NCBI GenBank assembly: GCA_052146735.1
Contig: JBKQMK010000202.1
Location: forward strand, 4,633 to 36,632
Length of the DNA: 32,000 bases
Origin: Desulfomonilaceae bacterium
GTDB taxonomy: Bacteria > Desulfobacterota > Desulfomonilia > Desulfomonilales > Desulfomonilaceae
Direction of reading: 5' to 3'
Shown: positions 8,070 to 32,000 of the stretch, one piece after another
Position numbering within the stretch: position 1 is the stretch's first letter
Layout: each line of letters starts with the position of its first letter
Program-made: the position numbers and the translations under genes
Notes under the pieces: generated by a model
What the model saw: only the letters and a program-made list of their open reading frames with translations
What the model was told of the DNA's origin: nothing
The model's database searches: none

Positions 8070-8405
8070 CAACGGCCGCGGAGCTTCAGATATTCCCGAT
8101 TGTATGGGCCTGGGGGCGCAGTCGGTTTACGCCCCCCATCGTTCCCGTTCGGTCTGGCCGGTACCGTATCCCTGGTTACCAGGCTCTGCCTGGTAACTCC
8201 CTTGTTCCGGGCTCCGCCCGATATGAGCCACGATTGCGAAATCTGGAAGGCCGGATTCCGGATTGGGGGCAGAACCTGGGAACCAGGTGTAGTGCATGGT
8301 GCCACGGACGAGCCGGTCGGCACGTTCGTGGCACCAATGTTTCGAGCACTTTCATGCTTCGTTGTGGCGCTTTCAACCGTAGAATCCGGCATGAAATCGC
8401 TGGGT

Positions 8406-8624: not shown

Positions 8625-8745
8625 GAAGAAGACTTTCCTTTCCAATCTGCAGTTGGGCTTTCTGATCGAGGGCTTAACGCAGCATTCCACTTCAATCCCA
8701 TTCGGCTGAAATTATTAGCTTTGCGTCTTACCGCTTATCGCGCCC

Positions 8746-11809: not shown

Positions 11810-11857
11810 TCAATTCAAAACAACTCTACACGAATACTTAAGAAAGGTGGCAATGGC

Positions 11858-14353: not shown

Positions 14354-14411
14354 ACAGTCTGCTCTTCTTTTACTGGTGCTGTGACAAAAATTGGCTGCTG
14401 AATTGACATCT

Positions 14412-15272
14412 ATGCCATTGGACTATTATTTGGCGTCAGTGCTCGACTGGACCCAGAGTCTTGGTGGATGGGGCCTCATTGTCGTTGCAGCCTTGTATGT
14501 CCTGGCGTGCCTACTGTTTCTCCCCGGATCGATACTTACTCTAGGGGTCGGCTTCTTGTTCGGTGCTCCCGCGGGAGTTTTGACCGTGTTGACGGGAGCC
14601 AATTTCGGGGCTTGCGCCGTTTTCGTCGTTGGCCGGACTATTGCTCGTGACTGGATAGCCCGGAAGATAGCCGATAACCCGAAACTTGCAGCCCTGGATG
14701 TTGCTGTAGGTAAAGAAGGGTTTAGGATGGTGCTGCTGCTCCGGCTGAATCCGGTGGTTCCTTTCAATGTTCTGAATTATGCCCTTGGCCTTACCAAGGT
14801 TTCCTTCCGCGATTACGCTCTCGCAACACTGATTGGTATGCTTCCTGAGACCCTGATATTGGTCTACCTGGGCTCCGCGGCAAAATCTTTAGCCGATTCG
14901 GTTACAGGCCAGGCAGACAGTGGTACGGCCGGTCGCGTTTTTATGTGGATCGGACTTGCAGCCACGATAGGCGTTGCAATCTTGGCAACACGGATTGCCC
15001 AACGGAGCCTGAAGGCGGCCCGAACGCCGGCACGCGATGCCCGCATGGCTACACCTGTTGAAGGGCTTCGAGAAAAAGAGGTCAATAATCGAACAATTCC
15101 GGTCTGGGCGTGTCGGACGTTCCCTATCCCCTCACGTGGATTTGAACCAACCATCCCCCAATTTATCGGCGAACAACCTGCCAACCCTTTGGATTCCAGG
15201 ATCGAACACTCTTCATTCTCAGACTTTATGCGCTCCACGCAACCAAGCACGCACTTGTCGGATGAGCGATAA
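14412..15272 (+). CDS. TVP38/TMEM64 (DedA/SNARE-associated) family membrane protein with non-conserved-looking C-terminal tail
   Basis: ORF 14391..15272, with TTG at 14391 and the first ATG at 14412. LLFLPGSILTLGVGFLFG and RLNPVVPFNVLNYALGLTKVSFRDY. The last ~90 aa are hydrophilic and unlike the family core. Confidence 0.75.
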   Translation: MPLDYYLASVLDWTQSLGGWGLIVVAALYVLACLLFLPGSILTLGVGFLFGAPAGVLTVLTGANFGACAVFVVGRTIARDWIARKIADNPKLAALDVAVGKEGFRMVLLLRLNPVVPFNVLNYALGLTKVSFRDYALATLIGMLPETLILVYLGSAAKSLADSVTGQADSGTAGRVFMWIGLAATIGVAILATRIAQRSLKAARTPARDARMATPVEGLREKEVNNRTIPVWACRTFPIPSRGFEPTIPQFIGEQPANPLDSRIEHSSFSDFMRSTQPSTHLSDER

Positions 15273-15357
15273 ATCCTGACTACGAGCGCTGCCTTTTTCT
15301 GGAGCCGACCACTAATCGTTTTTTAATTGATTCCAAACACCCCCAAAACTTTTTCCT

Positions 15358-15419
15358 TGTACACATTATGTAATCAATGTTTTGATTCGATCACGAAACG
15401 TGTTTTACAGAAGCAAATC
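15358..15419 (+). promoter_or_regulatory. Operator/promoter module copy A, upstream of the LysR gene
   Basis: TGTACAC-ATTA-TGTAATC direct repeats, the inverted repeat CACG-AAA-CGTG, and GCAAATC. 46 of 62 positions are identical to copy B in an ungapped alignment (hand count), with the same internal spacings. Confidence 0.5.
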
Positions 15420-15462
15420 GGCCGTATTCACCTGGACAAAAAGTCAGAGGAAACCGAAAGTG

Positions 15463-16350
15463 ATGAATCTGGAGCATGTCAAATCCTACTTGGCGGTTGT
15501 GCGCACTGGGAGCTACCATAAAGCTGCCAAGCACCTCGGATTGGCTCAGCCCACGGTCAGTCAGCATATCAGAAAACTGGAGAAAACCCTTGGCGCCACA
15601 TTGATCATCCGCGACCGCAATGGATGCTTCATGGCGCCACGCACTGAAGCCTTTGCACGCCAGGCCGAGTCGTTAGTCCGGATCGCGGACAAGGCGCGGA
15701 ATGCTTTGCGCCGTCCGACGATGACTGTGGGGGCCAGCACAAATGTAGGGACCTACCTGCTGCAGCCCATGTTTAAAGACTTCTACGAAGCTAATCGCGA
15801 GTCGCTGACTCTAGACCTGGTCATTGATCGCAATGATCGGATCGCGGATCGTCTCGAGAGTGATGAGATTGATGTTGCAGTCATGGAGTGGTGGGACAAT
15901 CGAGCGGGTTTCGTGAACCGCCCTTGGAAGAAGGAACGACTGGTGGTGATTGTTCCTCCCGGTCATCCCTGGAGCACTCGAAAATCTATCTCAGCGGAAG
16001 AGCTAATGGGGGAAAGGATGATCGGAGGCGAATCGGCCACGGGAACTGGCCGAGTACTGCGTGAAGCCCTGGGGGATCTTATGTCTGAATTTCACGTGGC
16101 ATTCAAACTTGGGAGCACGGAGGCCGTTAAGAACGCCGTTCAGACCGGGCTTGGAATTTCTATGGTCTTGGCGAGTTCAGTTGTGGACGAGGTCAAAAGC
16201 GGGGCGCTTAAAGCCATACATATCGATGGCCCTTGGCTCGAAAAGGAACTCATGGTCATTCATCGTCGCGGCCTTCCTAGTGACAGCGTCGCGGTAAGGT
16301 TCGCCGAGAAACTGACAAAAGAAAACGCGGTTTCGCTCGCGCCTTCTTGA
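15463..16350 (+). CDS. LysR-family transcriptional regulator (PtxE-like by context)
   Basis: ORF 15382..16350. Start ATG 15463 follows AGAGGAAA. HTH VKSYLAVVRTGSYHKAAKHLGLAQPTVSQHIRKLEKTLGATLIIRD, followed by a LysR substrate-binding domain. Confidence 0.88.
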   Translation: MNLEHVKSYLAVVRTGSYHKAAKHLGLAQPTVSQHIRKLEKTLGATLIIRDRNGCFMAPRTEAFARQAESLVRIADKARNALRRPTMTVGASTNVGTYLLQPMFKDFYEANRESLTLDLVIDRNDRIADRLESDEIDVAVMEWWDNRAGFVNRPWKKERLVVIVPPGHPWSTRKSISAEELMGERMIGGESATGTGRVLREALGDLMSEFHVAFKLGSTEAVKNAVQTGLGISMVLASSVVDEVKSGALKAIHIDGPWLEKELMVIHRRGLPSDSVAVRFAEKLTKENAVSLAPS

Positions 16351-16421
16351 AGTAATCATTTTCACCTGTGATACCAATGCGCTGCCGAATAAGTAATCCC
16401 GCCGATGAAGGGACTGACCGG

Positions 16422-16490
16422 CGTTTCGGGCAGGTCTCCGGAGCGCACTCACCCTATGCCGTTCATAGCGTAAGAGATCTGCCCGAAACG
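16422..16490 (+). other. Long inverted repeat: 17-bp stem with one G.U, 35-nt loop, between the LysR gene and the ptx promoter module
   Basis: CGTTTCGGGCAGGTCTC (16422-16438) pairs with GAGATCTGCCCGAAACG (16474-16490). No U-tract follows. Confidence 0.45.
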
Positions 16491-16614
16491 GCACCAACTG
16501 CTCTGACGCAGTACTACTCGTTTGAAAGCGCCTTGTTATTACGGGTCTTCATTGGTCGAGGAAAAGGATTAACCATTTTTTAGTTTGATCCTAATTCCTA
16601 CCAAATTTTGTCCG

Positions 16615-16676
16615 GGTAAACATTATGTAATCAAAATCCTTTTTCGATGACGAAACGTCATCCATCGCAGCAAATC
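16615..16676 (+). promoter_or_regulatory. Operator/promoter module copy B, upstream of the ptx operon
   Basis: GGTAAAC-ATTA-TGTAATC, the perfect 7-bp inverted repeat GATGACG-AAA-CGTCATC (16646-16662), and GCAAATC (16670-16676). See copy A. Confidence 0.5.
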
Positions 16677-16743
16677 TCCCATTTTACGCCGCACTCGATG
16701 CGAGGGAGATTGGGATTTCCATCCGCTGAAAGAAGGAAAGACC

Positions 16744-16869
16744 ATGGCAAGTCAGCACCTAAATCTGAAAAGTTTGGCGGCGGTCACCGCGATTGAGGCA
16801 TGTTTCCTGCTCGTTGCCCGCAGTTTCCGTGCGCAGCAGACGAAAGACGGGCAAATCGCTGAAATTTAG
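16744..16869 (+). CDS. Candidate 41-aa small ORF/leader between the ptx promoter module and ptxA
   Basis: Below the ORF-track size cut-off. GAAGGAAAG RBS, then ATG. MASQHLNLKSLAAVTAIEACFLLVARSFRAQQTKDGQIAEI*. No family recognised. Confidence 0.25.
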   Translation: MASQHLNLKSLAAVTAIEACFLLVARSFRAQQTKDGQIAEI

Positions 16870-16991
16870 TTTCCAATTTCGCAACGAGAAAGCCGATGAG
16901 GCGCTTGCTCCTTACTTAGTTTTACTCCAGCGGTGTTGAAACTGGTGTAGGGACATCACTCTTCCGCGGGATACCGGATGGGGAGAATGAA

Positions 16992-17750
16992 ATGATTGAA
17001 TTGGACGGAGTCGGCATGTGCTATCCAAGCGGAACCGAGGCACTTCGGCCGACATGCCTCAGATTCTACAAGGGACACTTTACCGTGTTGCTGGGGCCGT
17101 CTGGCGCCGGCAAGTCTACACTGCTCCGCTGTCTCAACTTCCTGACCAGGCCTACGTGCGGTCAGGTAGTCATCGAAGGTCTGGGAAAACTCGACTTCAA
17201 CGCGAGAAAACTGCGACAACTCAGAGGCTTCACCGGCATGATTTTCCAACAGCATCAATTGATATCCGGCCAGAGCGCTTTGAAAAACGTTCTGGTGGGC
17301 CGACTCGGAAAATATAGCTCGTTTCGTAGCCTCTTTCCATTGCCAAGGCGTGAACAGGAGTTCGCGTTGGAATGTCTTGAGCGAGTCGGCCTTCTGGATA
17401 AGGCGCTGGAAAGAGTGGACAACCTTAGCGGAGGCGAGCAACAGCGGGTAGGCATAGCACGAGCACTTGCTCAAAAACCCCAGTTGATTCTCGCAGATGA
17501 ACCGGTCGCAAGCCTCGATCCCGGTACGGCTGACAGCGTGCTTTCACTCCTCCATAAGATAACCAAAGAGGATGTCATTCCCGCAATTGTCAGTCTTCAC
17601 CAGGTGGAATGGGCGAAAAAGTACGCTGACCGAATCATAGGACTGTCAGAAGGAGCTGTAGTGTTTGACGGAAGCCCCCAGAGCCTGTCCTCGGACATGC
17701 TCCAGCAGATATATCACGTGAAAAAAGTGAGGATCCCGGCCGCAGCCTGA
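16992..17750 (+). CDS. ptxA: Phosphite/phosphonate ABC transporter ATP-binding protein (PhnC family)
   Basis: Walker A GPSGAGKST, signature LSGGEQQRVGIARAL, Walker B LILADEPVASLD. The symbol is assigned from operon context with ptxD. Confidence 0.85.
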   Translation: MIELDGVGMCYPSGTEALRPTCLRFYKGHFTVLLGPSGAGKSTLLRCLNFLTRPTCGQVVIEGLGKLDFNARKLRQLRGFTGMIFQQHQLISGQSALKNVLVGRLGKYSSFRSLFPLPRREQEFALECLERVGLLDKALERVDNLSGGEQQRVGIARALAQKPQLILADEPVASLDPGTADSVLSLLHKITKEDVIPAIVSLHQVEWAKKYADRIIGLSEGAVVFDGSPQSLSSDMLQQIYHVKKVRIPAAA

Positions 17751-17815
17751 GTACGAGTGACGAGACACGATTATCGTATTGGGCTGGAGCCGGACTACCC
17801 TTGACTGCCATCTAG

Positions 17816-18703
<888 letters not shown>

Positions 18704-18724
18704 CGACTGCTGGAGCGCTGTTTC

Positions 18725-19522
18725 ATGAATGAACGTTACGACCGGGTACTAATCGAACAACGGAGGCAATGGTATTATTCGGCACTCCAGATCGCCCTGG
18801 TTGCTCCTGTCATCGCAATCTGTTTCTACTATGTAGGGTTGTTTGATCGGAAACGAGTGCTGGACGGCATACCATCTATATTGAGCCTGATCGCTGAAAG
18901 CCTGCCTCCAAATTTCAGTGACCTGCCCAATTGGTTCAAACCTCTTTTGGACACCTTGGCCATGAGCATTGCGGGCACAGCGATAGCAGTGGGATTATCG
19001 CTGCCGCTGGCCTTGCTCGGAGCACGTAATACGTCTCCACACCCACTGGTGTATCAGTTCACCCGAGGCGTGCTTAACGGATTGCGCTCCGTTCCAGAGC
19101 TGATAATGGGCATCATTTTTGTGGCTGCCGTCGGCTTTGGTGCGTTGCCGGGAGTGCTGGCACTGGGCCTTCACTCAGTGGGAATGGTAGGAAAATTCTT
19201 TGCCGAAGCCATTGAGCATGTGGCAGAGGAACCCGTTGAAGCGGTCAAGGCCGTAGGTGCGCGGCCAATGCAGGTTATTCTTCATGCAGTGCTACCACAG
19301 GTCTCGTCGCAAATAGCAGACGTGTCAATCTACCGGTGGGAGTACAATTTTAGGGCGTCGACGGTGATGGGAATGGTCGGAGCAGGCGGCATCGGTTGTG
19401 AATTGATGAGCGCGTTGCGAATCATGCAATATCAGCACGTATCAGCCATTCTGATCGTTATTCTGCTGATGGTCACATTGGTTGATAGCTTTGGCGCCCA
19501 CCTGAGGCAGCGCTTCAAATAG
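18725..19522 (+). CDS. ptxC: Phosphite/phosphonate ABC transporter permease (PhnE family)
   Basis: Multi-TM protein with a PhnE-like loop RSVPELIMGIIFVAAVGFGALPGVLALGLHSVGMVGKFFAEAIE. Confidence 0.85.
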   Translation: MNERYDRVLIEQRRQWYYSALQIALVAPVIAICFYYVGLFDRKRVLDGIPSILSLIAESLPPNFSDLPNWFKPLLDTLAMSIAGTAIAVGLSLPLALLGARNTSPHPLVYQFTRGVLNGLRSVPELIMGIIFVAAVGFGALPGVLALGLHSVGMVGKFFAEAIEHVAEEPVEAVKAVGARPMQVILHAVLPQVSSQIADVSIYRWEYNFRASTVMGMVGAGGIGCELMSALRIMQYQHVSAILIVILLMVTLVDSFGAHLRQRFK

Positions 19523-19542
19523 AGCCCAAAAAGGTCTGATGA

Positions 19543-20529
19543 ATGAAACATCGTGTGGTCATAACATCTTGGGTGCACCAGGAGGTGGTCCAGCTATTAG
19601 AGCAATCGTGCGAAGTCATCCCAAATAACGAGCGGGAGCCTCTGACACGTGAGGAAATCTTGCGACGAACACAAGACGCTCATGCCCTTATGGTCTTTAT
19701 GACAGACAGTATAGACGACGATTTCCTGATTGCCTGCCCGAATCTGAAGATTGTGGCCGCGGCTCTCAAGGGCTACGACAATTTCGATGTGGAAAGTTGC
19801 ACGCGGCGCGGCATTTGGTTCACCATTGTGCCGGACCTCCTCACCATTCCTACGGCAGAACTGGCGGTGGGGCTTCTGATCGGTTTGACGCGGAAGATGC
19901 TCGACGGCGACCGCTTCGTCCGGACAGGTCAGTTCAGAGGCTGGCGCCCCAAGCTTTACGGTACGGGTTTGGCCGGCCGATGTGTGGGAATAGTCGGGAT
20001 GGGGGCTTTGGGCCAGGCGGTCGCAAAACGCCTGGCTGGCTTTGAAATGGAATTGCTCTACACAGATCGAGTCCCTTTACCAGAGCGACAAGAACAAGCC
20101 TGGGGCCTCAGTCGCGTTTCTATGGAAAGTCTTTTGGGACGAAGCGATTTTGTGCTCTTATCCGTACCACTGACTCCTGATACCCTTTGCTTTATCGATG
20201 ACAAGGCCCTTGCCAAAATGAGGCCGGGCAGCTTCCTTGTCAATGTATGTCGGGGGTCTGTGGTGGATGAGGAGGCTGTTGTGTCGGCGTTGGCCTCCGG
20301 GCATCTTGCAGGATACGCGGCCGATGTATTCGAGTTCGAAGACTGGGCCAGGAAGGACGCTCCATCGGGTATCTCCCGGTCGCTTCTCGAAGAGGGCACC
20401 ACCTTTTTCACTCCCCACCTCGGTTCGGCTGTGGACGACGTGCGCCGTGAAATTGCATTGGAAGCCGCACGCAACATTCTGCAAGCATTCGCCGGAACCA
20501 AACCCGAGGGTGCCATAAATCGACTATAG
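19543..20529 (+). CDS. ptxD: NAD-dependent phosphite (phosphonate) dehydrogenase, D-2-hydroxyacid dehydrogenase family
   Basis: Colinear with my recollection of Pseudomonas stutzeri PtxD. Shared blocks: [42 protein letters not shown] (GxGxxG), CRGSVVDE (catalytic Arg), [14 protein letters not shown] (Glu), FTPHLGSAV (His). Confidence 0.9.
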
Positions 20530-21204: not shown

Positions 21205-21624
21205 TTATAATAGGTCCGAGGTGGTTTTGTGCGGTTTCACCGGCTTCTCTTCTTCGACTCTTTTCCGCTGTTTCTGCGCGCGTGGTGGAGGCTTCGCGCG
21301 GCCACCTCTGGCGCGCTCCTCCACAGCTCTGACTCTTGCGGTAGCTACTTCTTCAGTCGGCTCGTCCTTTTTCGTCCTCCGGGCCGACGCCGGCCGGGTT
21401 GCTTCTATCCCCTTTGCCTTTTCTCTCCCCGGCCCCTCGGTAGCATCGCCGAGAATCTGCCGACCAGTTTCATAAAGCATGAATCCGCCCTTTAGAACAG
21501 CCTTCAACACGGGCCTGGTAGCAGACCATGCCAATGGTATAACTAGAGGCGCCGCAAGCAGGCCAGCTCCCACCGCGACGCCAGTCCATAAATCACCTTT
21601 TGGTCTGAAATCCCAAATTGCCAT
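21205..21624 (-). CDS. DUF5132-like small membrane protein with long Lys/Arg/Glu-rich tail (paralogue 1)
   Basis: MAIWDFRPKGDLWTGVAVGAGLLAAPLVIPL..VLKAVLKGGFMLYETGRQ.., then the tail RRTKKDEPTEE..RAQKQRKRVEEEKPVKPHK. AAGGAGG RBS. Paralogous to 27544..27810. Confidence 0.65.
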   Translation of the reverse strand: MAIWDFRPKGDLWTGVAVGAGLLAAPLVIPLAWSATRPVLKAVLKGGFMLYETGRQILGDATEGPGREKAKGIEATRPASARRTKKDEPTEEVATARVRAVEERARGGRAKPPPRAQKQRKRVEEEKPVKPHKTTSDLL

Positions 21625-22234: not shown

Positions 22235-22606
22235 ATGGGCTACTATCTCCACGAGGTGCCGGGTCGTCTGAGAATACAGATTTCATCTCTGAAGAGAAAT
22301 TCCCAGCGCGCACAGGAGGTTCAGGATCTCCTGGAGGATCTCTCCGGCATCAAATCAACCTCTGTGAACACCGTTACAGGCAGCGTAATAGTTCATTATG
22401 ATCCGGACATCGTGCATTCCAGGACCATTCTGACTCTTCTTTCCCGGGAAGAGTATATTGACGTCGCAAGAGCGGTCTCAAGCCATCAATATGTGGAAAC
22501 AACTCTTTCCAAAGCAGGTCACCTCGCGTCCAAGGCCCTTCTCGGATTTGCGTTGGACCGAGCTTTGCAGGGCTCCCCGCTATCTATTCTCGCCGCTTTC
22601 ATCTAG
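22235..22606 (+). CDS. Stand-alone HMA-like (HMA_2-type, no CxxC) domain protein
   Basis: HEVPGRLRIQISSLKRNSQRAQEVQDLLEDLSGIKSTSVNTVTGSVIVHYDPD. Same pattern as the ATPase N-terminus and ORF 26994..27515. AAGGAG RBS. Confidence 0.7.
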   Translation: MGYYLHEVPGRLRIQISSLKRNSQRAQEVQDLLEDLSGIKSTSVNTVTGSVIVHYDPDIVHSRTILTLLSREEYIDVARAVSSHQYVETTLSKAGHLASKALLGFALDRALQGSPLSILAAFI

Positions 22607-22626: not shown

Positions 22627-22650
22627 AAACCTACCCCACTACTAGGTTTT
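22627..22650. terminator. Possible bidirectional hairpin between convergent HMA-like and MetK-like genes
   Basis: AAACCTA (22627-22633), a 9-nt loop, then TAGGTTT (22643-22649) followed by T. The stem is AU-rich and overlaps the MetK-like stop codon. Confidence 0.3.
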
Positions 22651-23832
22651 GAGAATATCCGCTTTGTCAGTCGCCTCCCACGGCAAGTCCATATCTGTCC
22701 GACCGAAATGACCGTAGGCGGCAAGTCTGCGATAAAATCCTCCCTTAGACTTGGAAGGCAGCCTAATCAAGTCGAACTGTTTGATGATCCCGCCCAGCCT
22801 AAAATCAAAATTCTTTTCCACCAGAGCACTGATTTCATCATCGGAGATCTTGCCCGTTCCCATGGTCTCCACCTGGATGCTCACCGGGCCCGCGAGGCCG
22901 ATTGAATAGCTGAGTTGAACCTCGCACTGGTCAGCCAACCCTGCGGCAACAATGTTCTTGGCTGCGTAGCGGGCTGCATAGGCCCCGACCCTGTCAATTC
23001 TCAACGGATCTTTTCCGCTCAGAGCGGACCCGCCGTTTCTCGAATACCCACCGTATGTGTCAATTGCGTTCTTTCTGCCCGTAAGACCCGAGTGCACGGA
23101 CGGCCCGCCCAATTTCAGAGGACCCCCCGGGTTTATTAATATTCTGGTTTTTTTGTCCGGGCCTATGGGCTCACCCTCAAATACCGCCTGTACAACCGCC
23201 TCCATCACGTCCTCTCGGAGACGCTCCGGTTTGGGGTAGGTCCGATCGTTCTGGCTTGAATTGATCGTGATGCTGTGGATTCTGCGAGGCACTCGATTAC
23301 GGTATTCCACACCGACCTGTGTGGTGCCGTCAGGCGCCAGATACGGCAACACGCCCTGCAGGCGCACTTCGGAAAGTCTTCGCGAAATCTTGTGCGCAAG
23401 CCATATCGGGAGTGGCAAGAGTGTAGGTGATTGATTGCACGCAAAACCGAAAAGAGTGACTTGATCGTATGCCACGATTCCGTCAATGTCTTTCTCGGAA
23501 GCTTCTTTTTCGTCAACCAGACAAGGATGCTCCGGCGTCATTTCTTTTAGGCTGGTTAGTATACTGCACGTTTTAAAGTTGAATTCATGGTCAATGTAGC
23601 CGATTTTTCGGATGACCTTTCTGGCTACGTTCGGAAAGTCCACCTTGACCTCCGATGCAAACCTGGCAGCGATGAAAACCAGGGAGAGCGACACCGCACA
23701 TTCGGCGATAATCCTGGCACAGACGTCACGTTCGAGAAAGCGGTCTACAATAGCATCGCTTATTTGATCGCACAGTTTATCGGGATGTCCTTCGGTAACC
23801 GATTCTGACGTGTGTATGAAGTCTTTTTTCAT
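22642..23832 (-). CDS. metK: S-adenosylmethionine synthetase family protein, divergent MetK-like
   Basis: Full-length colinearity with MetK: SESVTEGHPDKLCDQISDA, GLTGRKNAIDTYGG, SGKDP, AAYAARYAAKNIVAAGLA, AAYGHFGR. The GAGDQG motif reads VAYDQV, GGGAFSGKD reads NGGSALSGKD, and GGEIT reads AARFA. The ATG overlaps the ATPase stop codon (ATGA). Confidence 0.8.
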   Translation of the reverse strand: MKKDFIHTSESVTEGHPDKLCDQISDAIVDRFLERDVCARIIAECAVSLSLVFIAARFASEVKVDFPNVARKVIRKIGYIDHEFNFKTCSILTSLKEMTPEHPCLVDEKEASEKDIDGIVAYDQVTLFGFACNQSPTLLPLPIWLAHKISRRLSEVRLQGVLPYLAPDGTTQVGVEYRNRVPRRIHSITINSSQNDRTYPKPERLREDVMEAVVQAVFEGEPIGPDKKTRILINPGGPLKLGGPSVHSGLTGRKNAIDTYGGYSRNGGSALSGKDPLRIDRVGAYAARYAAKNIVAAGLADQCEVQLSYSIGLAGPVSIQVETMGTGKISDDEISALVEKNFDFRLGGIIKQFDLIRLPSKSKGGFYRRLAAYGHFGRTDMDLPWEATDKADILKT

Positions 23833-26800
23833 TTGCTTTGCACCGCTCCGCCTTTCGTGGCTTCAGTAATGAGTAGAGGAGCCAAGGAGGCAACCCCGAT
23901 CACGAGTGCGTCAAAGGCGCCCACCGGGGTTGTACCGAGCAAACTTCTCAGTCCGGGAACAAGGAAAGTGCCCAATTGTAACCCGAGCGAACCGATGACC
24001 GCTATGTTCAGGTACTTGTTGGGAGCCGCTTTCTCCGCATCGAATATGCTGCGGTGTTCCGAACGACAACTTATCGCGTGCAGGATCTGTGATGTCGTAA
24101 GGCTTTGAAACGCTAATGTTCCCGCTGCGGGACCCATGCCGTATCTCATGACCCCGTAGCCGTACGCTGCCAGTGAAGCCGTTGTCATTGTTGCCGCTTC
24201 GAAGGTTATTCTTTTAAAATCCTCCGTTTTGACAATGGGCTCCATAGGGTCCCGGGGGGGCTGGTTCATCACGTCCGGTTCGGCCGGTTCCAGAGCCAAA
24301 GCAAGGCCGGGAAATATATCGGAAACAAGGTTGATCCAGAGTAGTTGCATAGCATTAATGGGGTATCCCAATCCCAGGGCGCCTGCTATGAACATCACCT
24401 GGATTTCGCTGAAATTGGTGGCGAGAAGATAGTGGAGCGTTTTCCTGATATTGTTATAAATGGTTCGGCCATCGCTTATGGCAATAATCAGGGTTTCAAG
24501 GTCATCTTCCTCCAGTACCACGTCAGCCACATCACGAGCCACATCAGTGCCGGCCCGCCCCATGGCTATGCCGACGTCGGCTGCCTTGAGAGCAGGTCCG
24601 TCATTGATACCGTCGCCGGTCATGGCTACAACTTTGCCGGTGCTCTGAAGAGCTTGGACGATCTGGAGCTTGTTCGATGGGCTGACCCTTGAAAAGACGT
24701 GGACCTCGCTGCTCAGGGCTTTCAAGACGGCAGGATCGGTGCTTGTGAGATGTGTCGAATCGAGAATCTCTAATGACCCTCCATTATTAAGCCCCAACTC
24801 TTTGCCTACTGCATAAGCCGTGGGGCTCTGGTCCCCCGTGATCATTACCGTTTCGAGACCGGCCTTATGAAACATTGCGATGGATTCTTTTACCCGTTCC
24901 CTTATAGGGTCGGCCATGCCAACGAGCCCCAGCCAGGTAAAACCATTTTCGTTCTCCAACTGCTCTTCGCCATTCCGGATCGCGTACGCGACGCCAAGGA
25001 CCCGCAAAGCCTTGCCCGCCATCGCGTCATTTTCAGCATCAATGAGGTCTCTGTCTTCGTCACTAAGAGGGACTGTTGTCCCGTCCTTAATTTGATGGCC
25101 GCATTTAGCCAGAACTTCCGCAGGGCTTCCTTTCATAGCAACCAATCTGGTGTTATCCACAGACCCGTGTACAGTGCTCATGAATTGGCGATTATCGGAC
25201 CGGTAGTTAGTATCCATCAACGGGTGCTGCTCTCTCAAAGCGCGAACATCCACACCTGCGCTTATGGCCATGTGAATCAGAGCGTTCTCGGTCGCAGAGC
25301 CGTTCAACACATGTTGGCGCTTCCTCGTCTCTATTTGGGTCTCGTTGCACAGCACGCAGACATGAATAAGTTTCAAGACCTCGTCAGAGTTGCAGGGATC
25401 TAAAGTCCCTGCCGTGCCATAGAAGAGACCCTCCTTTATTTCTATGCGCTCCATCCCGGAATAGATTCTTAGGACCGACATCTTGTTATGCGTTATGGTG
25501 CCAGTCTTGTCGAAACATATCGTCTGGACCGAGCCGAGCGTGCATATTGCATCGAGATTCCGGATCAGGACTTTGTGCCGTCTCATGTTCTTGATCCCGA
25601 GCGCAAGCGTGGTCGTTGCAACAGCCGGCAGACCTTCCGGAACAGCCGCAACCGCAAGAGAAATTGCCGTCTTCAACATCTGGAGAAACCCGTTCCCGCG
25701 GACGAGGCCGATGAAGAAAACTAACCCGCAAACAGCGCCGGAGATTAAAACCAGTTGATCGCCTATTGTGCTTAACTGTCTCTCAATGGGCGTCTCAGGG
25801 GCTTCGGCCTCGCCAACAAGGCACTGGATTTTCCCCATTTCTGACAATCGACCGATGGCTACCACAACTCCCAGGCCCTGGCCTCCTGTAATCAAGGTGC
25901 CCGAGTAGATCATGTTGGTGCGATCTGCAAGAGGAATCCTTGAGCCTTTGAGCGGCAATGCAATCTTGCTAACAGGCATGCTTTCGCCTGTGAGCACCGA
26001 TTCGTCGGCAGTCAAATGACCGGCCTCCACCAGCCTCGCGTCGGCAGTGACGTAGGTCCCGGGCTTGAGCACAAGAATGTCTCCCACCAGAACCTGCTCC
26101 GCGGGTATTTCCAGCGAGCTTCCATCTCGCATTACCTGGGCGTAAGGGCGGATCAGCTTCTTCAGTGAATTAATGGTCTTTTCTGCCTCACTTTCTGTAA
26201 CATAGCCAATTACCGCGTTGATGCCAACCACGGCCATAATTACAACGGCGTCAGCCAGGCCCCCGGTAACCACGGAGAGGCCGGCAGCGGCAGCCAGCAA
26301 CCCAACGGGGAGAGACATGAACTGGTCGATAAAGATCGCCCACTTGGAGCGAGAAAGCGCCTCAGGGACAACATTGAGGCCGTATTTGCTAAGGCTGGTC
26401 TTGGCTGCTTCGGCTGACAGTCCTTTTTTCTTTGAGGAATTCAGCGACGCAAGCACGAATTTGGCGTCCATTAAGTGCCAGGGCTTGGTCTCCTGCTCTC
26501 TCGTAGCAAGAAAATACGGCTCATCTTTCTTGCCGCGGGTGACCCTGAGCTCGGTTACACGGGCGGGGACGCTCTGTGGAAAAAGGCCCGAACCATTCTC
26601 TCCCTGAGACGCTTCTAGCTCTTGCTGGTAAGTTACAGCGATCTGCTCCACGTGCGAAGCGATCTTGCGGGGGTTGCAGTCGGGATCAAAGGTAATAAGG
26701 ACGTTTCCGGTCAGAATGTTGGCAGAAACTTCACCCACCTCCGGGACTTCCAAAAGCAACATTTCCAGTCGGTATTTGAGTGACACTGAACGGTAGAGGC

Positions 26801-26855
26801 CCCTGACCCTGTACCTCCCTCTACCTCTGACGGAGCTATGGATTTGTTTCACCAA
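23829..26855 (-). CDS. P-type ATPase, PIIA (SERCA-like) cation pump with N-terminal HMA-like domain
   Basis: TGES (LTGESMPV), VAAVPEGLPAVATTTLALG (TM4), ICFDKTGTITHN (phosphorylation site), MITGDQ, VAMTGDGINDGPALKAADVGIAMG, TM5 YLLATNFSEI, TM6 NLVSDIFPG. N-terminal ~75 aa: GRGRYRVRGL..VGEVSANILTGNVLITFDPD. Start is TTG 26855 or GTG 26852. Confidence 0.92.
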   Translation of the reverse strand: MVKQIHSSVRGRGRYRVRGLYRSVSLKYRLEMLLLEVPEVGEVSANILTGNVLITFDPDCNPRKIASHVEQIAVTYQQELEASQGENGSGLFPQSVPARVTELRVTRGKKDEPYFLATREQETKPWHLMDAKFVLASLNSSKKKGLSAEAAKTSLSKYGLNVVPEALSRSKWAIFIDQFMSLPVGLLAAAAGLSVVTGGLADAVVIMAVVGINAVIGYVTESEAEKTINSLKKLIRPYAQVMRDGSSLEIPAEQVLVGDILVLKPGTYVTADARLVEAGHLTADESVLTGESMPVSKIALPLKGSRIPLADRTNMIYSGTLITGGQGLGVVVAIGRLSEMGKIQCLVGEAEAPETPIERQLSTIGDQLVLISGAVCGLVFFIGLVRGNGFLQMLKTAISLAVAAVPEGLPAVATTTLALGIKNMRRHKVLIRNLDAICTLGSVQTICFDKTGTITHNKMSVLRIYSGMERIEIKEGLFYGTAGTLDPCNSDEVLKLIHVCVLCNETQIETRKRQHVLNGSATENALIHMAISAGVDVRALREQHPLMDTNYRSDNRQFMSTVHGSVDNTRLVAMKGSPAEVLAKCGHQIKDGTTVPLSDEDRDLIDAENDAMAGKALRVLGVAYAIRNGEEQLENENGFTWLGLVGMADPIRERVKESIAMFHKAGLETVMITGDQSPTAYAVGKELGLNNGGSLEILDSTHLTSTDPAVLKALSSEVHVFSRVSPSNKLQIVQALQSTGKVVAMTGDGINDGPALKAADVGIAMGRAGTDVARDVADVVLEEDDLETLIIAISDGRTIYNNIRKTLHYLLATNFSEIQVMFIAGALGLGYPINAMQLLWINLVSDIFPGLALALEPAEPDVMNQPPRDPMEPIVKTEDFKRITFEAATMTTASLAAYGYGVMRYGMGPAAGTLAFQSLTTSQILHAISCRSEHRSIFDAEKAAPNKYLNIAVIGSLGLQLGTFLVPGLRSLLGTTPVGAFDALVIGVASLAPLLITEATKGGAVQSK

Positions 26856-26993: not shown

Positions 26994-27515
26994 TCAATCT
27001 CCGTCCGCATCATCAAGTTCTGCCCCCAGATCTTCCCCCTCGTCCCATTCATCGATCTGCGCTCGAGTAAATACGCCAAGCGCGTAGTAGAAAGCTGTGT
27101 ACCATGCGGGCATGGCCAAATTTCCTCGCGCAATCTGCCAGATCCCGGAAGTTACCAAACTCACAAAAATCAGGCTGGGGATATCTACTTCGCCGCCGGT
27201 CAAATGCTTGAGGCTTTGGTTATACCCCTGAAAAGTATCAGCCACGTTGCCAAACAGACTCTTCCGGCGCGGGGCGGATCGCTTCAAGAGAAACAAGTTA
27301 TGTTCCCTGGCAAACTCGACTATGGTCTTCCTTTGACATTCGTAGGAAATCAGGGCGCTCCCCGTCTGCGGATTCACCCTGATTTCGCCCACGCCGGGAC
27401 AGCCTGAAAGTCGCTCCCGCAGAGTGGAAAAATAGGAAACCTCTCCCCTCTTGGAAGGAATTTTGATCCTGAGCCTACGGGCCATCCCATGGGACACATG
27501 AGCATCGGGAATCAT
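26994..27515 (-). CDS. HMA-like (no CxxC) domain protein with C-terminal membrane segment and acidic tail
   Basis: GMARRLRIKIPSKRGEVSYFSTLRERLSGCPGVGEIRVNPQTGSALISYE, then IPSLIFVSLVTSGIWQIA..AWYTAFYYALGVF and DEWDEGEDLGAELDDADGD. AGGGAGG RBS. Confidence 0.7.
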   Translation of the reverse strand: MIPDAHVSHGMARRLRIKIPSKRGEVSYFSTLRERLSGCPGVGEIRVNPQTGSALISYECQRKTIVEFAREHNLFLLKRSAPRRKSLFGNVADTFQGYNQSLKHLTGGEVDIPSLIFVSLVTSGIWQIARGNLAMPAWYTAFYYALGVFTRAQIDEWDEGEDLGAELDDADGD

Positions 27516-27543: not shown

Positions 27544-27810
27544 CTACGCTCCCTTTCCCTTCACCGGTGCCAGCTCGGCCTGCACTTCAGATCTTGCCTC
27601 GGCTGCTAGATCCTCCACCACTTCAGCGACCTCGGCGATCATCTCTCGACTTTTTTCGTAAAGCATAATGCCGCCCTTCATGGCTGCCTTTGCCACCGGC
27701 TTCGCGGCGGCCGCTATCATGGGAATTACCACGGGGGCTACTAGTAATCCTACGCCGATCGCGAGACCGGTCCACAAATCCGCTTTAGGTCTATAATCCC
27801 AAATTGCCAT
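27544..27810 (-). CDS. DUF5132-like small membrane protein (paralogue 2)
   Basis: ORF 27544..27819. ATG 27810 is preferred: it is 9 nt after GGGGAGG and aligns with paralogue 1. MAIWDYRPKADLWTGLAIGVGLLVAPVVIP..VAKAAMKGGIMLYEKSREMIAEVAEVVEDLAAEARSE. Confidence 0.65.
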   Translation of the reverse strand: MAIWDYRPKADLWTGLAIGVGLLVAPVVIPMIAAAAKPVAKAAMKGGIMLYEKSREMIAEVAEVVEDLAAEARSEVQAELAPVKGKGA

Positions 27811-28129
27811 TTGACGCATCCTCCCCTTCAGTTATTCTTAGCACTACTCCCACCGTAATAGGTTAGCGCATTGTTCAGAATATGTCTACTTTGTTAGTGC
27901 TGTATTAGAGTTGTGTTAAAAATCGCAGTTCGGCAAACTTTTTCGGTAATCGTTCACCAGGAAATCAGTTTACCCGGTTTTGCAACGCGACCAATCTCCG
28001 CGCCGATCACCCAATGCGCTATGGACGGCTAATTTTCTTGAAAGGTCGCGATGTCTCCTCCGGGACCATGCCAAGAGCGGCCGAGGCAGGCTATCCAAGG
28101 TCGGGATCAATCAGGCTATCCGGCTGCCT

Positions 28130-28510: not shown

Positions 28511-29560
28511 CTATACCCGGTCTTCAACCACGTGAAAGGACATCGTGCACGCTGTTACCATGCTTCTTCCGGAGAATAGCAATCCGGTCCAACCGAGTGC
28601 CTGCAAAAATAGGATCACAGCCGGGTCCCACAGTGTCGCAATGCCCATGCCCAGATTGGCGGCCGGGATCAATCGTCCCGGAGCGCTCCAGCCAACCAAC
28701 AGAAAGACATACACGATCGCCGCCATGCTCATGATCTGATAGGCGCTAACCTTGCCACCTCCCCGGTAATCGGCTCTGAGAAGCTCGGATACGGGTCTCC
28801 AAGCTTGGGTAGTTACTATCACCAGGATGAGCGCCGCAGAATAGCACCCCTTCAAGTAAAGAAAGATTGCAGCAAGGCTTACAGCCAGGTGCAATATAGC
28901 CGTGATGGCCTGTATGGGAATAACTTCGGTTCCGTCCAGACCTCCTTCGTAGGCTATCTTCTTGGTCTTACCTGAAAAGACGAAAGGATGACGACCTACG
29001 ATGCGCCGAATCCAGGGCCCACATTGAGACAAAGGTTTTCCGTAGCAACAACCGAAGCTTATACACGCCAAACGTCCTAAACCTTCTCCCAATCCGTATG
29101 ATATGGAAATGGACGCAAGTGCAGGAATCATGGGAACAGGATTCTTCCACCCAGAGGCAATGTCAACAATCCACAAAATGGCTGGAGTCACCAGAAAGCC
29201 CACAAAGGATGCGCCACCTATTGTGAGCGTGTGAGGCTTCTTCTCGACTGTCCGTGCTATGAACTTTGAGGCAGGAAGACAGACAGTGAGGACCATGCAC
29301 ATAATTATCCCTGTCACAGTCGCGGACACTCCGATTGCGCCCAACAGAATAAACGTGATCGCCGCGGCCACCATGATCGCCGCGGCACTGAAAAATCCAT
29401 AGTATGTGAAATTTAATCCTCTCCACCTGTTTCCCTCTTCTTTGGCCACAGGAATCGTTGCCATGATTTGCCATTTTTCTTGCGGCAAAGTCTGGAAAGC
29501 CCACCGGAGTACCAATGCGAAAAAGATTGCCAGGCCCAACACGAACGACTCATCTGACAT
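28511..29560 (-). CDS. Lgt (prolipoprotein diacylglyceryl transferase) family polytopic membrane protein
   Basis: ORF 28511..29629. Start ATG 29560 follows AAGGGAGTGGTGG. GLGRLACISFGCCYGKP resembles the Lgt-family GR.GCF..GCCYG motif. 8 or more hydrophobic segments. LLRADYRGG near the C-terminal third. Confidence 0.65.
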   Translation of the reverse strand: MSDESFVLGLAIFFALVLRWAFQTLPQEKWQIMATIPVAKEEGNRWRGLNFTYYGFFSAAAIMVAAAITFILLGAIGVSATVTGIIMCMVLTVCLPASKFIARTVEKKPHTLTIGGASFVGFLVTPAILWIVDIASGWKNPVPMIPALASISISYGLGEGLGRLACISFGCCYGKPLSQCGPWIRRIVGRHPFVFSGKTKKIAYEGGLDGTEVIPIQAITAILHLAVSLAAIFLYLKGCYSAALILVIVTTQAWRPVSELLRADYRGGGKVSAYQIMSMAAIVYVFLLVGWSAPGRLIPAANLGMGIATLWDPAVILFLQALGWTGLLFSGRSMVTACTMSFHVVEDRV

Positions 29561-29644
29561 TCCACCACTCCCTTTAGATCGCTTTTGGCATGAAATGATT
29601 TGTGCATCCGTACGCAGCAGGCAGATCACTCAGAAGCATGTTTT

Positions 29645-30655
29645 TCACTCTCCTCGTGTAATGCTGGTGCCGATTGTAGATCGCACCTTCAAGTCGGTTT
29701 CCACCAACGGCCGGCCGAAGCCTATGGAAAACCGACTTTGCACGCCGTACAGACGCAAATTACGCAAAAGATCCTCTGCAAACTTAATCCGCCCCTGCTG
29801 AAACAAGACCACATCAGTGCTGCTACCAGGCCGATACTGGCTCTTGGGTAATCCTTTCCCCAGAAACATGCCCGGTTCCACCGGTCGTGGATTTTCGTAT
29901 CGGGTTTCGCTGTAGGCCTGAACGATGTCACCGATCATCAGAGCCACGACTTCTATCATTGCAACAAAGCCGACGCCTGTTCCGCCCTGGACGTCCGTAT
30001 CTATGATGGTGACTACGCGCCTGTTTTTTGAAAATGGCGTCACAAGAGCAACTACTGCACCAGGGTTGCAGGAATGATAGTCTCCGGGGATTTCAAATAT
30101 ATCCACCACTTGCCCGGCCACAGGTGTGTGGTTGTAATGATATTTGTCCGGTGTCAACCTGAAGACCGCAAAATCTCCATTAAGGAACGCTCTGTTCCAT
30201 TCCGGCTTGTCCCGACTGAGAAGTTCTTCAAGATCGAAAAACTTTTCTTTGAGAAACAAGCTGGAACTCTCGCTCAAAGAGCCGATTATGACCCTGGAAT
30301 CCGCCGGAGACACTACGGTCACCGGCCGTTCATCCATGGATCGGCACTCCCAATATCGGATTTGACGTTCAAAGACCTTTCTCAAGGTCGTCAAACTTTC
30401 GGGCTCAACGCATTCCGCTAGGTCTACGCCGTATTTCTTCAGTGAGGCCCCGGCCCGATTAGCGAGACGAGCATCGTATTGTATGGACGCGAGCAGCCGA
30501 GACGTGCGGGCGCTGGTGAGGGCTTTGAAAAGAAACGGAGCTCTTTCTCTGCATACTGAGTACATCAGTCGGACAGCTTTGTCTCCAATGAGCCTCTCGG
30601 TGCAAACCTTCCCGGACTCTCTGTCCACGAACTGGTGCTGCATGGCCGCGATCAT
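29645..30655 (-). CDS. psd: Phosphatidylserine decarboxylase family proenzyme (long type)
   Basis: VVSPADSRVIIG, FRLTPDKYHYNHTPVAGQV, and a candidate cleavage site YRPGSSTDVVLF. ORF starts at 30691. ATG 30655 lies 5 nt after the upstream stop. ATG 30643 is also possible. Confidence 0.8.
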   Translation of the reverse strand: MIAAMQHQFVDRESGKVCTERLIGDKAVRLMYSVCRERAPFLFKALTSARTSRLLASIQYDARLANRAGASLKKYGVDLAECVEPESLTTLRKVFERQIRYWECRSMDERPVTVVSPADSRVIIGSLSESSSLFLKEKFFDLEELLSRDKPEWNRAFLNGDFAVFRLTPDKYHYNHTPVAGQVVDIFEIPGDYHSCNPGAVVALVTPFSKNRRVVTIIDTDVQGGTGVGFVAMIEVVALMIGDIVQAYSETRYENPRPVEPGMFLGKGLPKSQYRPGSSTDVVLFQQGRIKFAEDLLRNLRLYGVQSRFSIGFGRPLVETDLKVRSTIGTSITRGE

Positions 30656-30659
30656 ATAT

Positions 30660-32000
30660 TCACAACCCCTTTGAAGCGCAGACGCTTTCATGGTGTACGG
30701 TGACCAGAACCAGGTCGATGAGTGCCTTCAACACTTCAAGAGACGCAACATCGTTAAGCACATCATTTTGAACGGTGGTGAGAAATTCGCAGACCCCTTG
30801 GTCTTTTGTAGAATATGAAAGGGCTTCTCTATAATCTCTTGCGGATTCGGCCGAGCCCGATTCCATCGCTAGAAGATCTTCGTGCAGGAAACGCAAGGCT
30901 TCGACCATGTGCCGTTTCTTCAGGACCGTCCTATAGTAGCGTTCCGAAGCCAGGTTGAATTCATCTGCGGTCAAATTCATGGGAGAGTCCGCACCGGTGG
31001 ACTCGAGTATGCCGCTAGTCAATTTTCCTGCGGCTGAAAATTCTTGGGGATTCTCCAGCCTGGCCTTGAGATCCTCCACAGTGTCTTCCAAATGAAGAGT
31101 TTCGATCAGGTCAGACGCTTCATGCATGAGGAGATCGACCAAAGCCAGCCGATATTGTCGGTTGTACACTCTCAAGTACCCAGGATAGCGTCGACTGTAT
31201 CGCGCTCCTCTCGTGCGTTTCATGATGCTTTTCATGAACAAATTTCGAGTGTCATTGAAAATAAAAAAAGTTGGCAGTCCGATAGCGGAGCCGAAAAACA
31301 TTTGCCTGCGTTCACTTTCCGTAAAGGGGTCGTCGGGAATGTGGGAATGCGTGATCTTGCCTTGAAGCACCAATTTGTAGGCCAGAGCGGTCACCAGGGT
31401 TTGCAGATTGGTAGCATCAGCCATGTCGTGCTCGATGCTTTCAAACAGGCTGTAATGACGTCCCTCGAATCCCGAGAAGCCTACCTTTCTGAATTCTCGA
31501 AGTCGATAGAGCAGGTAGAGTGACATTTCCTGGTCAAACACGCCCAGGTCGGAGAGGTCCTTTTTTAAGCGTTCTTCATTTCCGAGTTTGCCATCAAGTG
31601 CGGGGCTTCTTTCGGTGCTCCTCAGCGTGACCAGATAGTCGAGGAGCCTGAAATCAGCGACAAAGTCCCCTTTCACCCGAAAAAGGCGGCTAATTGTTTT
31701 GTCGAGAAAATCGACGCCGAAAGGTGTCACCGGCCGACCTAATATTTTCAGCGTCGCTTTATTTTTCCACCGCCGCCAGATCATTCTCAAATGGGTGTAG
31801 TCAAGTTCGTGAGGCAAAAAGCCGAGAACCTTTTCCGGATGAAAATCTACGAAATCGAGTCTGTACGGCGCTGCGCTGTATGTCCCCACGAAGAGCGGGA
31901 GAAAGTGTTCTACTATCTTGATTACCAGGTCCCCCAAGAATTTTTCATGAGCCGCTGTGAATCCCGAAGTTTCGTCTGCGAGATGGGCTGTGAGCTTGGC
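30660..32000 (-). CDS. Large conserved-looking hypothetical protein, C-terminal 446 aa; N-terminus beyond the window
   Basis: The track starts it at TTG 31937, but the frame stays open through position 32000 (AKLTAHLADETSGFTAAHEKF-LGDLVIK...). No motif recognised. The stop lies 5 nt before the psd-like ATG, suggesting an operon. Confidence 0.6.
   Translation of the reverse strand, partial: AKLTAHLADETSGFTAAHEKFLGDLVIKIVEHFLPLFVGTYSAAPYRLDFVDFHPEKVLGFLPHELDYTHLRMIWRRWKNKATLKILGRPVTPFGVDFLDKTISRLFRVKGDFVADFRLLDYLVTLRSTERSPALDGKLGNEERLKKDLSDLGVFDQEMSLYLLYRLREFRKVGFSGFEGRHYSLFESIEHDMADATNLQTLVTALAYKLVLQGKITHSHIPDDPFTESERRQMFFGSAIGLPTFFIFNDTRNLFMKSIMKRTRGARYSRRYPGYLRVYNRQYRLALVDLLMHEASDLIETLHLEDTVEDLKARLENPQEFSAAGKLTSGILESTGADSPMNLTADEFNLASERYYRTVLKKRHMVEALRFLHEDLLAMESGSAESARDYREALSYSTKDQGVCEFLTTVQNDVLNDVASLEVLKALIDLVLVTVHHESVCASKGL

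Follow-up and report, generated by a model that had tools for sequence, protein, structure and literature searches.

The window, by which we mean the whole stretch of 32,000 nucleotides of Desulfomonilaceae DNA analysed here, carries on its reverse strand a gene for a protein of the SAM synthetase (MetK) fold, located directly behind a gene for a P-type ATPase (Table 1). The MetK-like ORF starts with an ATG embedded in the end of the ATPase gene, where the junction reads ...GTG CAA AGC AAA TGA (AAATGAAAA): the ATG occupies positions 23832-23830 and the ATPase TGA positions 23831-23829. This 4-nt ATGA overlap, which an earlier note on this DNA had placed at 23829-23832, is read directly from the letters. 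It is not a chance feature, as 37 of 56 loci, spread over six phyla, have overlapping stop and start codons (mostly as ATGA), the other junctions being gaps of 0-30 nt (11 loci) or longer gaps (8 loci). The overlap, a sign of translational coupling, indicates co-expression of the two genes and does not demonstrate a physical complex between the ATPase and the MetK-like protein. Rfam detected no riboswitch or other RNA leader in the whole window, and promoter and terminator scans yielded nothing above the shuffled background by which the ends of the operon could be defined.

Table 1. Features of the MetK-like/ATPase locus, in window positions.
Feature	Coordinates	Strand	Remarks
MetK-fold paralog ("H238 family"), 396 aa	22642..23832	-	Triphosphate, Mg, and K sites kept; methionine and adenosine pockets replaced
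ATGA stop/start overlap between ATPase and MetK-like gene	23829..23832	-	GGAG ~14 nt before the ATG
Type-II P-type ATPase, 1008 aa, TTG start, N-terminal CoBaHMA/HMA_2-like domain (~4-58)	23829..26855	-	Pfam E1-E2_ATPase, Cation_ATPase_N/C
CoBaHMA (HMA_2) protein, 173 aa, hydrophobic C-terminal hairpin	26994..27515	-	PF19991, 49.1 bits; most loci carry an ortholog upstream of the ATPase gene
DUF5132 small membrane protein, 91 aa, heading the operon	27544..27819	-	PF17195, 43.5 bits (cut-off 25); position conserved
Single-domain CoBaHMA (HMA_2) protein, 123 aa, in convergent orientation to the MetK-like gene	22235..22606	+	PF19991, 53.5 bits; position and orientation shared by many loci
Small conserved ORF, 67 aa	21770..21973	-	tblastn 54-76% identity in L001, L005, L007, L010, and L012; without Pfam hit
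DUF5132-like protein, 139 aa, very basic C-terminal tail	21205..21624	-	N-terminus resembles the DUF5132 protein; clusters with DUF5132/HMA_2 proteins; no Pfam hit alone
Zinc-ribbon and transmembrane protein, 106 aa	20803..21123	-	Only in closest relatives (6 loci)

The MetK-like protein displays the three-domain MAT fold at full length, according to Pfam, AF2, and Foldseek. All three Pfam S-AdoMet_synt domains are matched (N, 112.5 bits; M, 114.1 bits; C, 196.5 bits), and the TIGR01034 equivalog cut-off is passed (385.9 vs 309.4 bits). The AF2 model (pLDDT 81) is matched by Foldseek to MetK structures with TM values of 0.77-0.83, the triphosphate loop (residues 242-271) being of low confidence in the AF2 monomer. 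The motifs TEGHPDK, SGLTGRKNAIDTYGG, ALSGKD, and AAYGHFGR are all found, and the earlier description of a full-length MetK-like protein with conserved motifs holds. The likeness to MetK (EC 2.5.1.6; TIGR01034; PF00438, PF02772, PF02773) thus resides in the fold, the length, and the same Mg2+, K+, and triphosphate residues, with ~45% identity to the solved bacterial MetKs. In contrast with MetK, the MetK-like proteins possess a family-specific insertion, LPxxxKGGFY. The whole protein is also ~15 charges less acidic, with a net charge of -1.4 vs -16.1 for canonical MetK.

The partner ATPase and the CoBaHMA/DUF5132 genes

The ATPase aligns end-to-end with the P2A Ca2+ pumps (LMCA1, SPCA1/PMR1, SERCA), with which, judged by eye, it has the PEGL motif and Ca2+-site residues of TM5 and TM6 in common. 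Its closest solved structures are Listeria LMCA1 (478 bits) and human SPCA1. Read by eye, TM4 displays PEGLP, and equivalents of N768, E771, N796, and D800 are present while E908 is replaced by Q, the ion site having the SERCA-type N/E in TM5 and N/S/D in TM6. Unlike these pumps, however, the window ATPase remains below all NCBIfam equivalog cut-offs. The PMR1- and SERCA-type models lead, both under their own cut-offs, the best being the PMR1-type TIGR01522 (614.9 bits, cut-off 798). Two further differences are a CoBaHMA domain of ~125 aa added at the N-terminus and an obligatory MetK-like gene downstream. The N-terminus scores 24.5 bits with HMA_2, under the cut-off of 30, and that of an ortholog (locus L022) 31.8 bits. 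On these resemblances the ATPase looks like a Ca2+ pump, its ion specificity being inferred. The earlier note had called the linkage to a cation pump intriguing in view of the K+ and Mg2+ dependence of MetK. With a pump that looks Ca2+-type, LMCA1 and SPCA1 being its closest solved structures, this dependence is no evidence for the linkage.

CoBaHMA domains were first described in calcyanin, a marker of intracellular amorphous CaCO3 formation in cyanobacteria, and their signature comprises a histidine upstream of strand β1 and basic residues within β1 (PMC8890360). Both ORFs 22235-22606 and 26994-27515 meet the PF19991 cut-off (30 bits), and a pattern H-x(3-4)-(G)R-x-R-[IV] is seen by eye in these two proteins and in the ATPase N-terminus. 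In Microcystis, ccyA and a Ca2+/H+ exchanger have DUF5132 and CoBaHMA-hairpin proteins as flanking, co-expressed neighbours (bioRxiv 10.1101/2024.07.07.602159). The window operon resembles these ccyA gene sets by its DUF5132 membrane protein, its CoBaHMA membrane-hairpin protein, and an adjoining transporter that is Ca2+-type in appearance; through the shared DUF5132 and CoBaHMA types it has a toolkit in common with a calcium-handling system. It differs from them in three respects: it is devoid of a calcyanin gene, its transporter is a P-type ATPase whereas that of Microcystis is a CAX, and it harbors a MetK-like gene, while the text of bioRxiv 10.1101/2024.07.07.602159 is without any "adenosyl". 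More generally, a MetK-like gene goes unmentioned in the publications examined on the calcyanin/CoBaHMA system. Lipid-remodelling neighbours (PS decarboxylase-like, LGT-like) were also considered as parts of the system and discarded, since their conservation does not extend beyond the closest relatives.

A distinct, pump-linked paralog family of the MAT fold

The linkage between the two genes was surveyed by searching all retrieved loci by tblastn with the proteins encoded around the MetK-like gene of the window, and its universality applies to loci long enough to show the upstream gene. A GTDB scan with one genome per species provided 50 orthologous loci. The ATPase is located directly upstream, on the same strand, of every MetK-like protein at least 53% identical to that of the window, i.e., in 50/50 orthologous loci, compared with 0/31 canonical metK loci. 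In the distant members P0127, P0123, and P0144 (43-49% identity), an ATPase C-terminus is found immediately upstream too. The genes are usually ordered DUF5132, CoBaHMA (HMA_2) membrane protein, ATPase, and MetK-like, often with a single-domain HMA_2 gene convergent downstream of the operon. The minimal form, reduced to the ATPase and MetK-like pair, is exemplified by Nostocales HT-58-2, in which transposase genes lie on the flanks. Two complete copies of the module occupy one contig (L006, L012). No fusion of an H238-type protein to an ATPase or a CoBaHMA domain was observed among the long representative hits, which are canonical MetKs with inteins or mis-joined genes. Plasmid-borne copies of the paralog were sought among the best 30 of 188 plasmid matches (all <60% identity): the annotated ones among these 30 are all metK, and none reaches the 53% of the ATPase-linked orthologs.

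The MetK-like proteins form a distinct and conserved paralog family of the MAT fold. More than 120 clusters at or above 67% identity emerged from a search of 5.8 billion proteins, and distant representatives (41-57% identity), retrieved from a library of 1.84 billion proteins, share the signature H238/R269/L262. Neighbour-joining of 100 sequences sets the 60 H238-type proteins apart from the 40 D238-type proteins in 60/60 bootstraps; the pump-linked MetK-like proteins form a separate clade, a point that the earlier note had left to phylogeny. This tree is distance-based. Its canonical sample leans to Firmicutes, so the root and the origin of the family are not settled. Mean identity is 0.58 inside the family and 0.45 to canonical MetK. 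The TIGR01034 scores are bimodal, with 248-399 bits for the paralogs and 590-618 bits for canonical MetK, and one family member falls below the cut-off of 309.4. Hosts belong to the Desulfobacterota, Nitrospirota, Cyanobacteria, Alpha- and Gammaproteobacteria, and Myxococcota, a spread that suggests horizontal transfer of the module. The dN/dS ratio of the window gene relative to eight orthologs ranges from 0.03 to 0.10, and the MetK-like gene is therefore under strong purifying selection. Relatives carry the name methionine adenosyltransferase in the source databases, and no published description of the family was found in a literature search.

To locate the changes in the active site, the proteins were aligned by HMMER to solved MetK structures and by MAFFT, with numbering on E. 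coli MetK. The classical residues of the E. coli reference sequence fell at their published numbers, which supports the numbering. Both alignments uphold the signature changes that the earlier note had read by eye: VGGEIT becomes AARFAS (E55R), GAGDQG becomes VAYDQV (G117Y and G120V, D118 being kept), GPMGDCG becomes GPSVHSG (D238H), and GGGAFSGKD becomes GGSALSGKD. Beyond that list, Q98M, S99T, K165T, T227G, R229P, F230L, and K269R are found. At the methionine-binding positions E55, Q98, S99, D238, and K269, the window protein thus displays R, M, T, H, and R, respectively, and at the adenosine-pocket positions T227, R229, and F230 and the catalytic K165, it displays G, P, L, and T. None of the triphosphate and metal residues (H14, D16, K17, E42, R244, K245, K265, and D271) is missing.

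The same pattern recurs in the 50 orthologous loci. H14, D16, K17, and K245 are invariant, as is K265, one alignment gap aside, and at least 94% of the orthologs have retained R244, D271, E42, and D163. E55 and Q98, on the other hand, are kept in none, being replaced by R in 44 orthologs and by L, M, or I, respectively, and the acidic pair E55 and D238 has given way to the basic pair R55 and H238. Position 238 is H in 50/50 orthologs and in 59/60 family members, and K269 is R in 49/50 and kept nowhere. In the adenosine pocket, T227 is replaced in all 50 and R229 is never kept (P in 39), so that the family lacks these two adenine contacts along with those of methionine. Position 230 varies more (L in 22, F in 12, and Y in 10). 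K165 is often lost, 18 of the 50 orthologs, including that of the window, having T instead. Variation is wider in the larger family (n=60), both at F230 (L/F/Y/G/S) and at E55 (R/H/K/M/S). The triphosphate and metal residues named above stay conserved in these 60 as well. Conservation is incomplete at G258-G260 and K165, further residues lining the triphosphate site. In the alignment with the 50 orthologs, 31/31 canonical MetKs keep the conserved residues named above as well as E55, Q98, K165, T227, R229, D238, and K269. All the substitutions listed in the earlier note are family traits, not drift.

The roles of these positions are documented in human MAT2A (PMC6850014). Methionine or SAM is bound through its amino group by Glu70 and Asp258, the latter of which also contacts the ribose O3', and through its carboxyl group by Gln113. 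Adenine is held by Ser247, Arg249, and Phe250, and activity requires Ser114. SAM synthesis is lost in the patient mutants D258G, K289N, and R249W, whose tripolyphosphatase activity is normal (PMC6850014). In E. coli numbering, E70, Q113, S114, D258, and K289 correspond to E55, Q98, S99, D238, and K269, and Ser247, Arg249, and Phe250 to T227, R229, and F230. As the changed residues are the methionine and adenosine contacts of MAT2A, the paralog is, judged by its residues, a MAT from which the SAM-forming half of the site has been lost and in which the triphosphate half is kept. The earlier note had located the changes on the methionine-binding side. That side is indeed replaced family-wide, but the adenine/ribose pocket and K165 have changed too.

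These data weigh against an ordinary, if divergent, SAM synthetase isozyme found by chance in a pump operon. Full length, a TIGR01034 score above the cut-off (385.9 vs 309.4), and the database name of the relatives are what one would expect of such an isozyme. Yet 40/40 canonical sequences keep E55, Q98, S99, D238, and K269, and the paralogs none of them; the human mutants at two of these positions, D258G and K289N, lose SAM synthesis (PMC6850014). The two score distributions (248-399 vs 590-618 bits) do not mix, two full copies of the module lie on one contig, and the Nostocales pair is flanked by transposase genes. We consider the isozyme explanation highly improbable.

A second possibility is that the protein is an adenosyl- or nucleosidyltransferase acting on ATP, in which the C5' would be attacked by another nucleophile, anionic and without an alpha-amino group, its anionic group being bound by Arg55, His238, and Arg269. 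The conversion of the amino-binding acidic pair into a basic pair resembles a charge reversal for another substrate, H14 and D163 are kept, and position 230 remains hydrophobic or aromatic in the closer orthologs. However, neither of the adenine contacts T227 and R229 survives in any member, and many members have T, Q, or S in place of K165, on which SAM formation depends. At position 230, distant members still linked to the pump have exchanged F for G, S, P, or V. Moreover, no recurrent biosynthetic or tailoring genes are found nearby, and such a transferase seems unlikely.

Possible roles of the MetK-like protein

The earlier note had argued against housekeeping SAM synthesis, and this position is strengthened by the family-wide loss of the methionine contacts, the separate clade, and the universal ATPase linkage. 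That the MetK-like protein makes no SAM is nevertheless an inference: no activity has been measured, and the presence of a canonical metK in the same genomes is not established. The case for a canonical metK elsewhere rests on the residues, the duplicated module, and the transposase-flanked cyanobacterial copy, no genome having been scanned. The alternatives put forward at that time, namely an altered substrate, a pseudo-enzyme, or a nucleotide- or polyphosphate-handling partner of the pump, are supported as a set. Since the adenine/ribose pocket and K165 have changed as well, a simple swap of methionine for another substrate is the less likely part of it.

Our best explanation is that the MetK-like protein is a non-SAM protein, the soluble partner of the pump, that binds and probably hydrolyses tri- or polyphosphate. 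In the absence of activity, ligand, or interaction data, this explanation, taken as a whole, might just as well prove wrong as right. The protein would be made in step with the pump and would most likely be its soluble partner. Independently of SAM synthesis, canonical MAT uses the half of the site that is retained here to hydrolyse tripolyphosphate to PPi and Pi. With Arg55, His238, and Arg269, what was the methionine pocket is now cationic. It is from the conserved triphosphate half, this basic pocket, and the less acidic protein that binding and probable hydrolysis of tripolyphosphate, or of the end of a longer polyphosphate chain, are proposed. In MAT, the Pi released from PPPi is the gamma phosphate, the deepest buried in the site, so a longer chain could leave by way of the old adenosine/methionine pocket, which R55, H238, and R269 now line. 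The hydrolase step is proposed only by analogy with the tripolyphosphatase half-reaction of canonical MAT, the likeness being that the triphosphate and metal residues survive in the family. A difference is that MAT makes PPPi in situ from ATP, whereas the family would need tri- or polyphosphate entering from outside. An acidic gating loop docking on a basic CoBaHMA patch was also envisaged and rejected, as the loops of canonical MetKs are at least as acidic (-6.9 vs -4.7).

The residues could also be read as those of a non-catalytic regulatory or scaffold subunit, in which the MAT fold would serve as an oligomeric platform or as a sensor of ATP, PPPi, or an anion that gates the pump, perhaps via the CoBaHMA domain of the latter, without substrate turnover. 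The tight stop/start overlap fits a stoichiometric subunit, the catalytic K165 appears dispensable (T, Q, or S in many members), and positions F230 and E55 vary within the family, as expected once the substrate constraint is gone. Against this, H14, D16, K17, K245, K265, and D271 are conserved, and H238 and R269 newly fixed, at 43-58% identity, and dN/dS is below 0.1. Such conservation suggests that the site has to perform demanding chemistry and is more than a scaffold, but residues would be conserved for ligand sensing too. A purely regulatory subunit is possible but remains doubtful.

Phosphorus context and significance

The proposed binding and hydrolysis of tri- or polyphosphate may be considered alongside the genes found nearby. 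Upstream in the window are three PstS-like genes, a PhnCDE transporter of which every subunit exceeds its NCBIfam cut-off, and a 2-hydroxyacid dehydrogenase that we take to be PtxD-like (phosphite dehydrogenase). Pst, PhoU, Phn, or PtxD-like genes occur within 10 kb in 15/51 paralog loci, compared with 0/30 canonical loci (Fisher p = 6e-4), and the 15 loci represent at least six separate lineages and arrangements. The test is biased, since its seed proteins were drawn from paralog loci and the lineages share ancestry and are not independent, and the phosphate-gene neighbourhood is to be taken as a lead only. No ppk or ppx was found in the three loci with Pfam gene tables. No upstream motif or E. 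coli-type Pho box shared between the operon and the window's phosphate genes was detected either, a single shared 10-mer being within chance.

Polyphosphate stores carry Ca2+, and for this reason the combination of a polyphosphate enzyme with a Ca2+ pump would be coherent in phosphate starvation. The module could couple the mobilisation of phosphate, or the sensing of a phosphate-rich anion, to Ca2+ transport. In its fullest form, this reading describes a MAT fold used as a phosphatase or binder of polyphosphate ends or tripolyphosphate, in a stoichiometric complex with a CoBaHMA-regulated Ca2+ pump, within an acidocalcisome-like bacterial system not recognised before. Together with the DUF5132 and CoBaHMA proteins, it would build or mobilise calcium-phosphate, polyphosphate, or amorphous-carbonate stores under phosphate stress, and this acidocalcisome-like toolkit would have spread horizontally over at least six phyla. 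We regard this extended reading as a speculation that is unlikely to hold in full.

The databases almost certainly misname this family. Well over a hundred sequence clusters are called "methionine adenosyltransferase" by HMM pipelines while the methionine site is absent, and metabolic reconstructions may consequently count a false SAM synthetase. The family also represents a natural experiment on a bifunctional active site, in which the triphosphate half is retained and the other half rebuilt, and would put one of the most conserved enzyme folds to a new chemistry or regulatory use. The linkage suggests an unrecognised soluble partner of a bacterial Ca2+-pump-like P-type ATPase. It further provides a testable handle on the CoBaHMA and DUF5132 proteins, for which intracellular calcium-carbonate biomineralisation is the only association known to date. 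Finally, the Pst, PhoU, Phn, and phosphite-oxidation neighbours suggest a link between calcium handling and phosphorus scarcity.

Family-specific insertion and companions of the module

The MetK-like protein carries an insertion, LPxxxKGGFY, immediately preceding the AAYGHFGR motif, that is specific to the MetK-like family; none of the aligned canonical MetKs has it. Loci retrieved with relatives of this protein (L numbers) display further additions to the usual operon of DUF5132, CoBaHMA membrane protein, ATPase, and MetK-like genes (the module). Nine of them (L004, L021, L023, L024, L028, L037, L046, L049, and L053) harbor a ~240-residue repeat protein, without a Pfam match, separating the CoBaHMA gene from the ATPase. 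It is rich in Ala, Val, and Gly, a composition that recalls granule- or organelle-coat proteins. In ten loci, L023 included, a double zinc-ribbon protein adjoins the single-domain CoBaHMA gene; it has only weak matches to InsA/IS1595-type ribbons and may be a regulator. In several loci, a second ATPase paralog (35-38% identity) is encoded at a distance of a few kb from the MetK-like gene and lacks such a partner gene of its own. In some cases, as exemplified by L044, this paralog also matches CoBaHMA at its N-terminus.

Features of the window and of related loci
Locus	Feature	Position (strand)
Window	Hybrid PAS histidine kinase/receiver and three PstS-like genes	1896-4151, 4353-5351, 6108-6959 (+), 8746-9834 (-)
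Window	Putative lipid gene regions	11009-15272, 28511-31937
Window	Two phosphatidylserine-decarboxylase-like genes	11009-11809, 29645-30691
Window	LysR regulator and PhnC/PhnD/PhnE, then 2-hydroxyacid dehydrogenase	15382-20529 (+)
Window	LPxxxKGGFY insertion (protein residues ~355-366)	22642-23832
L004	Repeat protein between CoBaHMA gene and ATPase	6068-6796 (+)
L023	Double zinc-ribbon protein, ~110 aa	5425-5766
L022	Nostocales cyanobacterium HT-58-2, CP019636.1	790108-811277
L048	MetK-like and/or ATPase genes in several frames	10001-11186
L066	As L048	6975-11189
L005	As L048	6975-10001
L028	Second ATPase paralog	11218-14163
L031	Second ATPase paralog	8238-11165
L034	Second ATPase paralog	13135-15837
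L041, L042, L044, L050	Second ATPase paralog	

Copy number, spread, and hosts

Contig CAVUIT010000015.1 bears two complete copies of the module (L006 and L012), about 60 kb apart, whose MetK-like proteins share 89% and 96% identity with that of the window. The sole cyanobacterial match, L022, contains the CoBaHMA-ATPase and MetK-like pair alone, with transposase ORFs (IS605 OrfB-like and DDE) on its flanks, and looks like a recently acquired island; a PstS-like gene lies 9 kb downstream. The split frames in the MAG contigs of L048, L066, and L005 could stem from frameshifts in the assembly or, in some lineages, from true gene decay.

Four Nitrospirota hosts (L029, L032, L033, and L036) are presumably magnetotactic, given their strain names (HCH-1, nDJH5bin4, nDJH8bin6, and MYC-10). 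According to a 2026 preprint, amorphous CaCO3 is formed inside the cells of some magnetotactic Nitrospirota. Sampling bias could equally explain the presence of such organisms among the hosts.

Phosphorus and putative lipid genes in the window

The hybrid kinase gene adjoins three distinct genes for PstS-like periplasmic binding proteins (PBP_like_2), an unusual concentration of phosphate-binding-protein paralogs within 8 kb. Besides the two phosphatidylserine-decarboxylase-like proteins, the putative lipid gene regions encode a membrane protein with weak resemblance to LGT, a VTT/DedA protein, and a GT4 glycosyltransferase of 831 residues. These genes may function in lipid remodelling, and their adjacency to the module is kept only in the closest relatives.

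PhnC, PhnD, and PhnE score above the NCBIfam cut-offs, and the dehydrogenase that follows them is 328 residues long, with a sequence that closely resembles the phosphite dehydrogenase PtxD. With its LysR regulator, this block, which also adjoins the module in L005, L012, and L066, looks like a ptx-type phosphite-oxidation operon.
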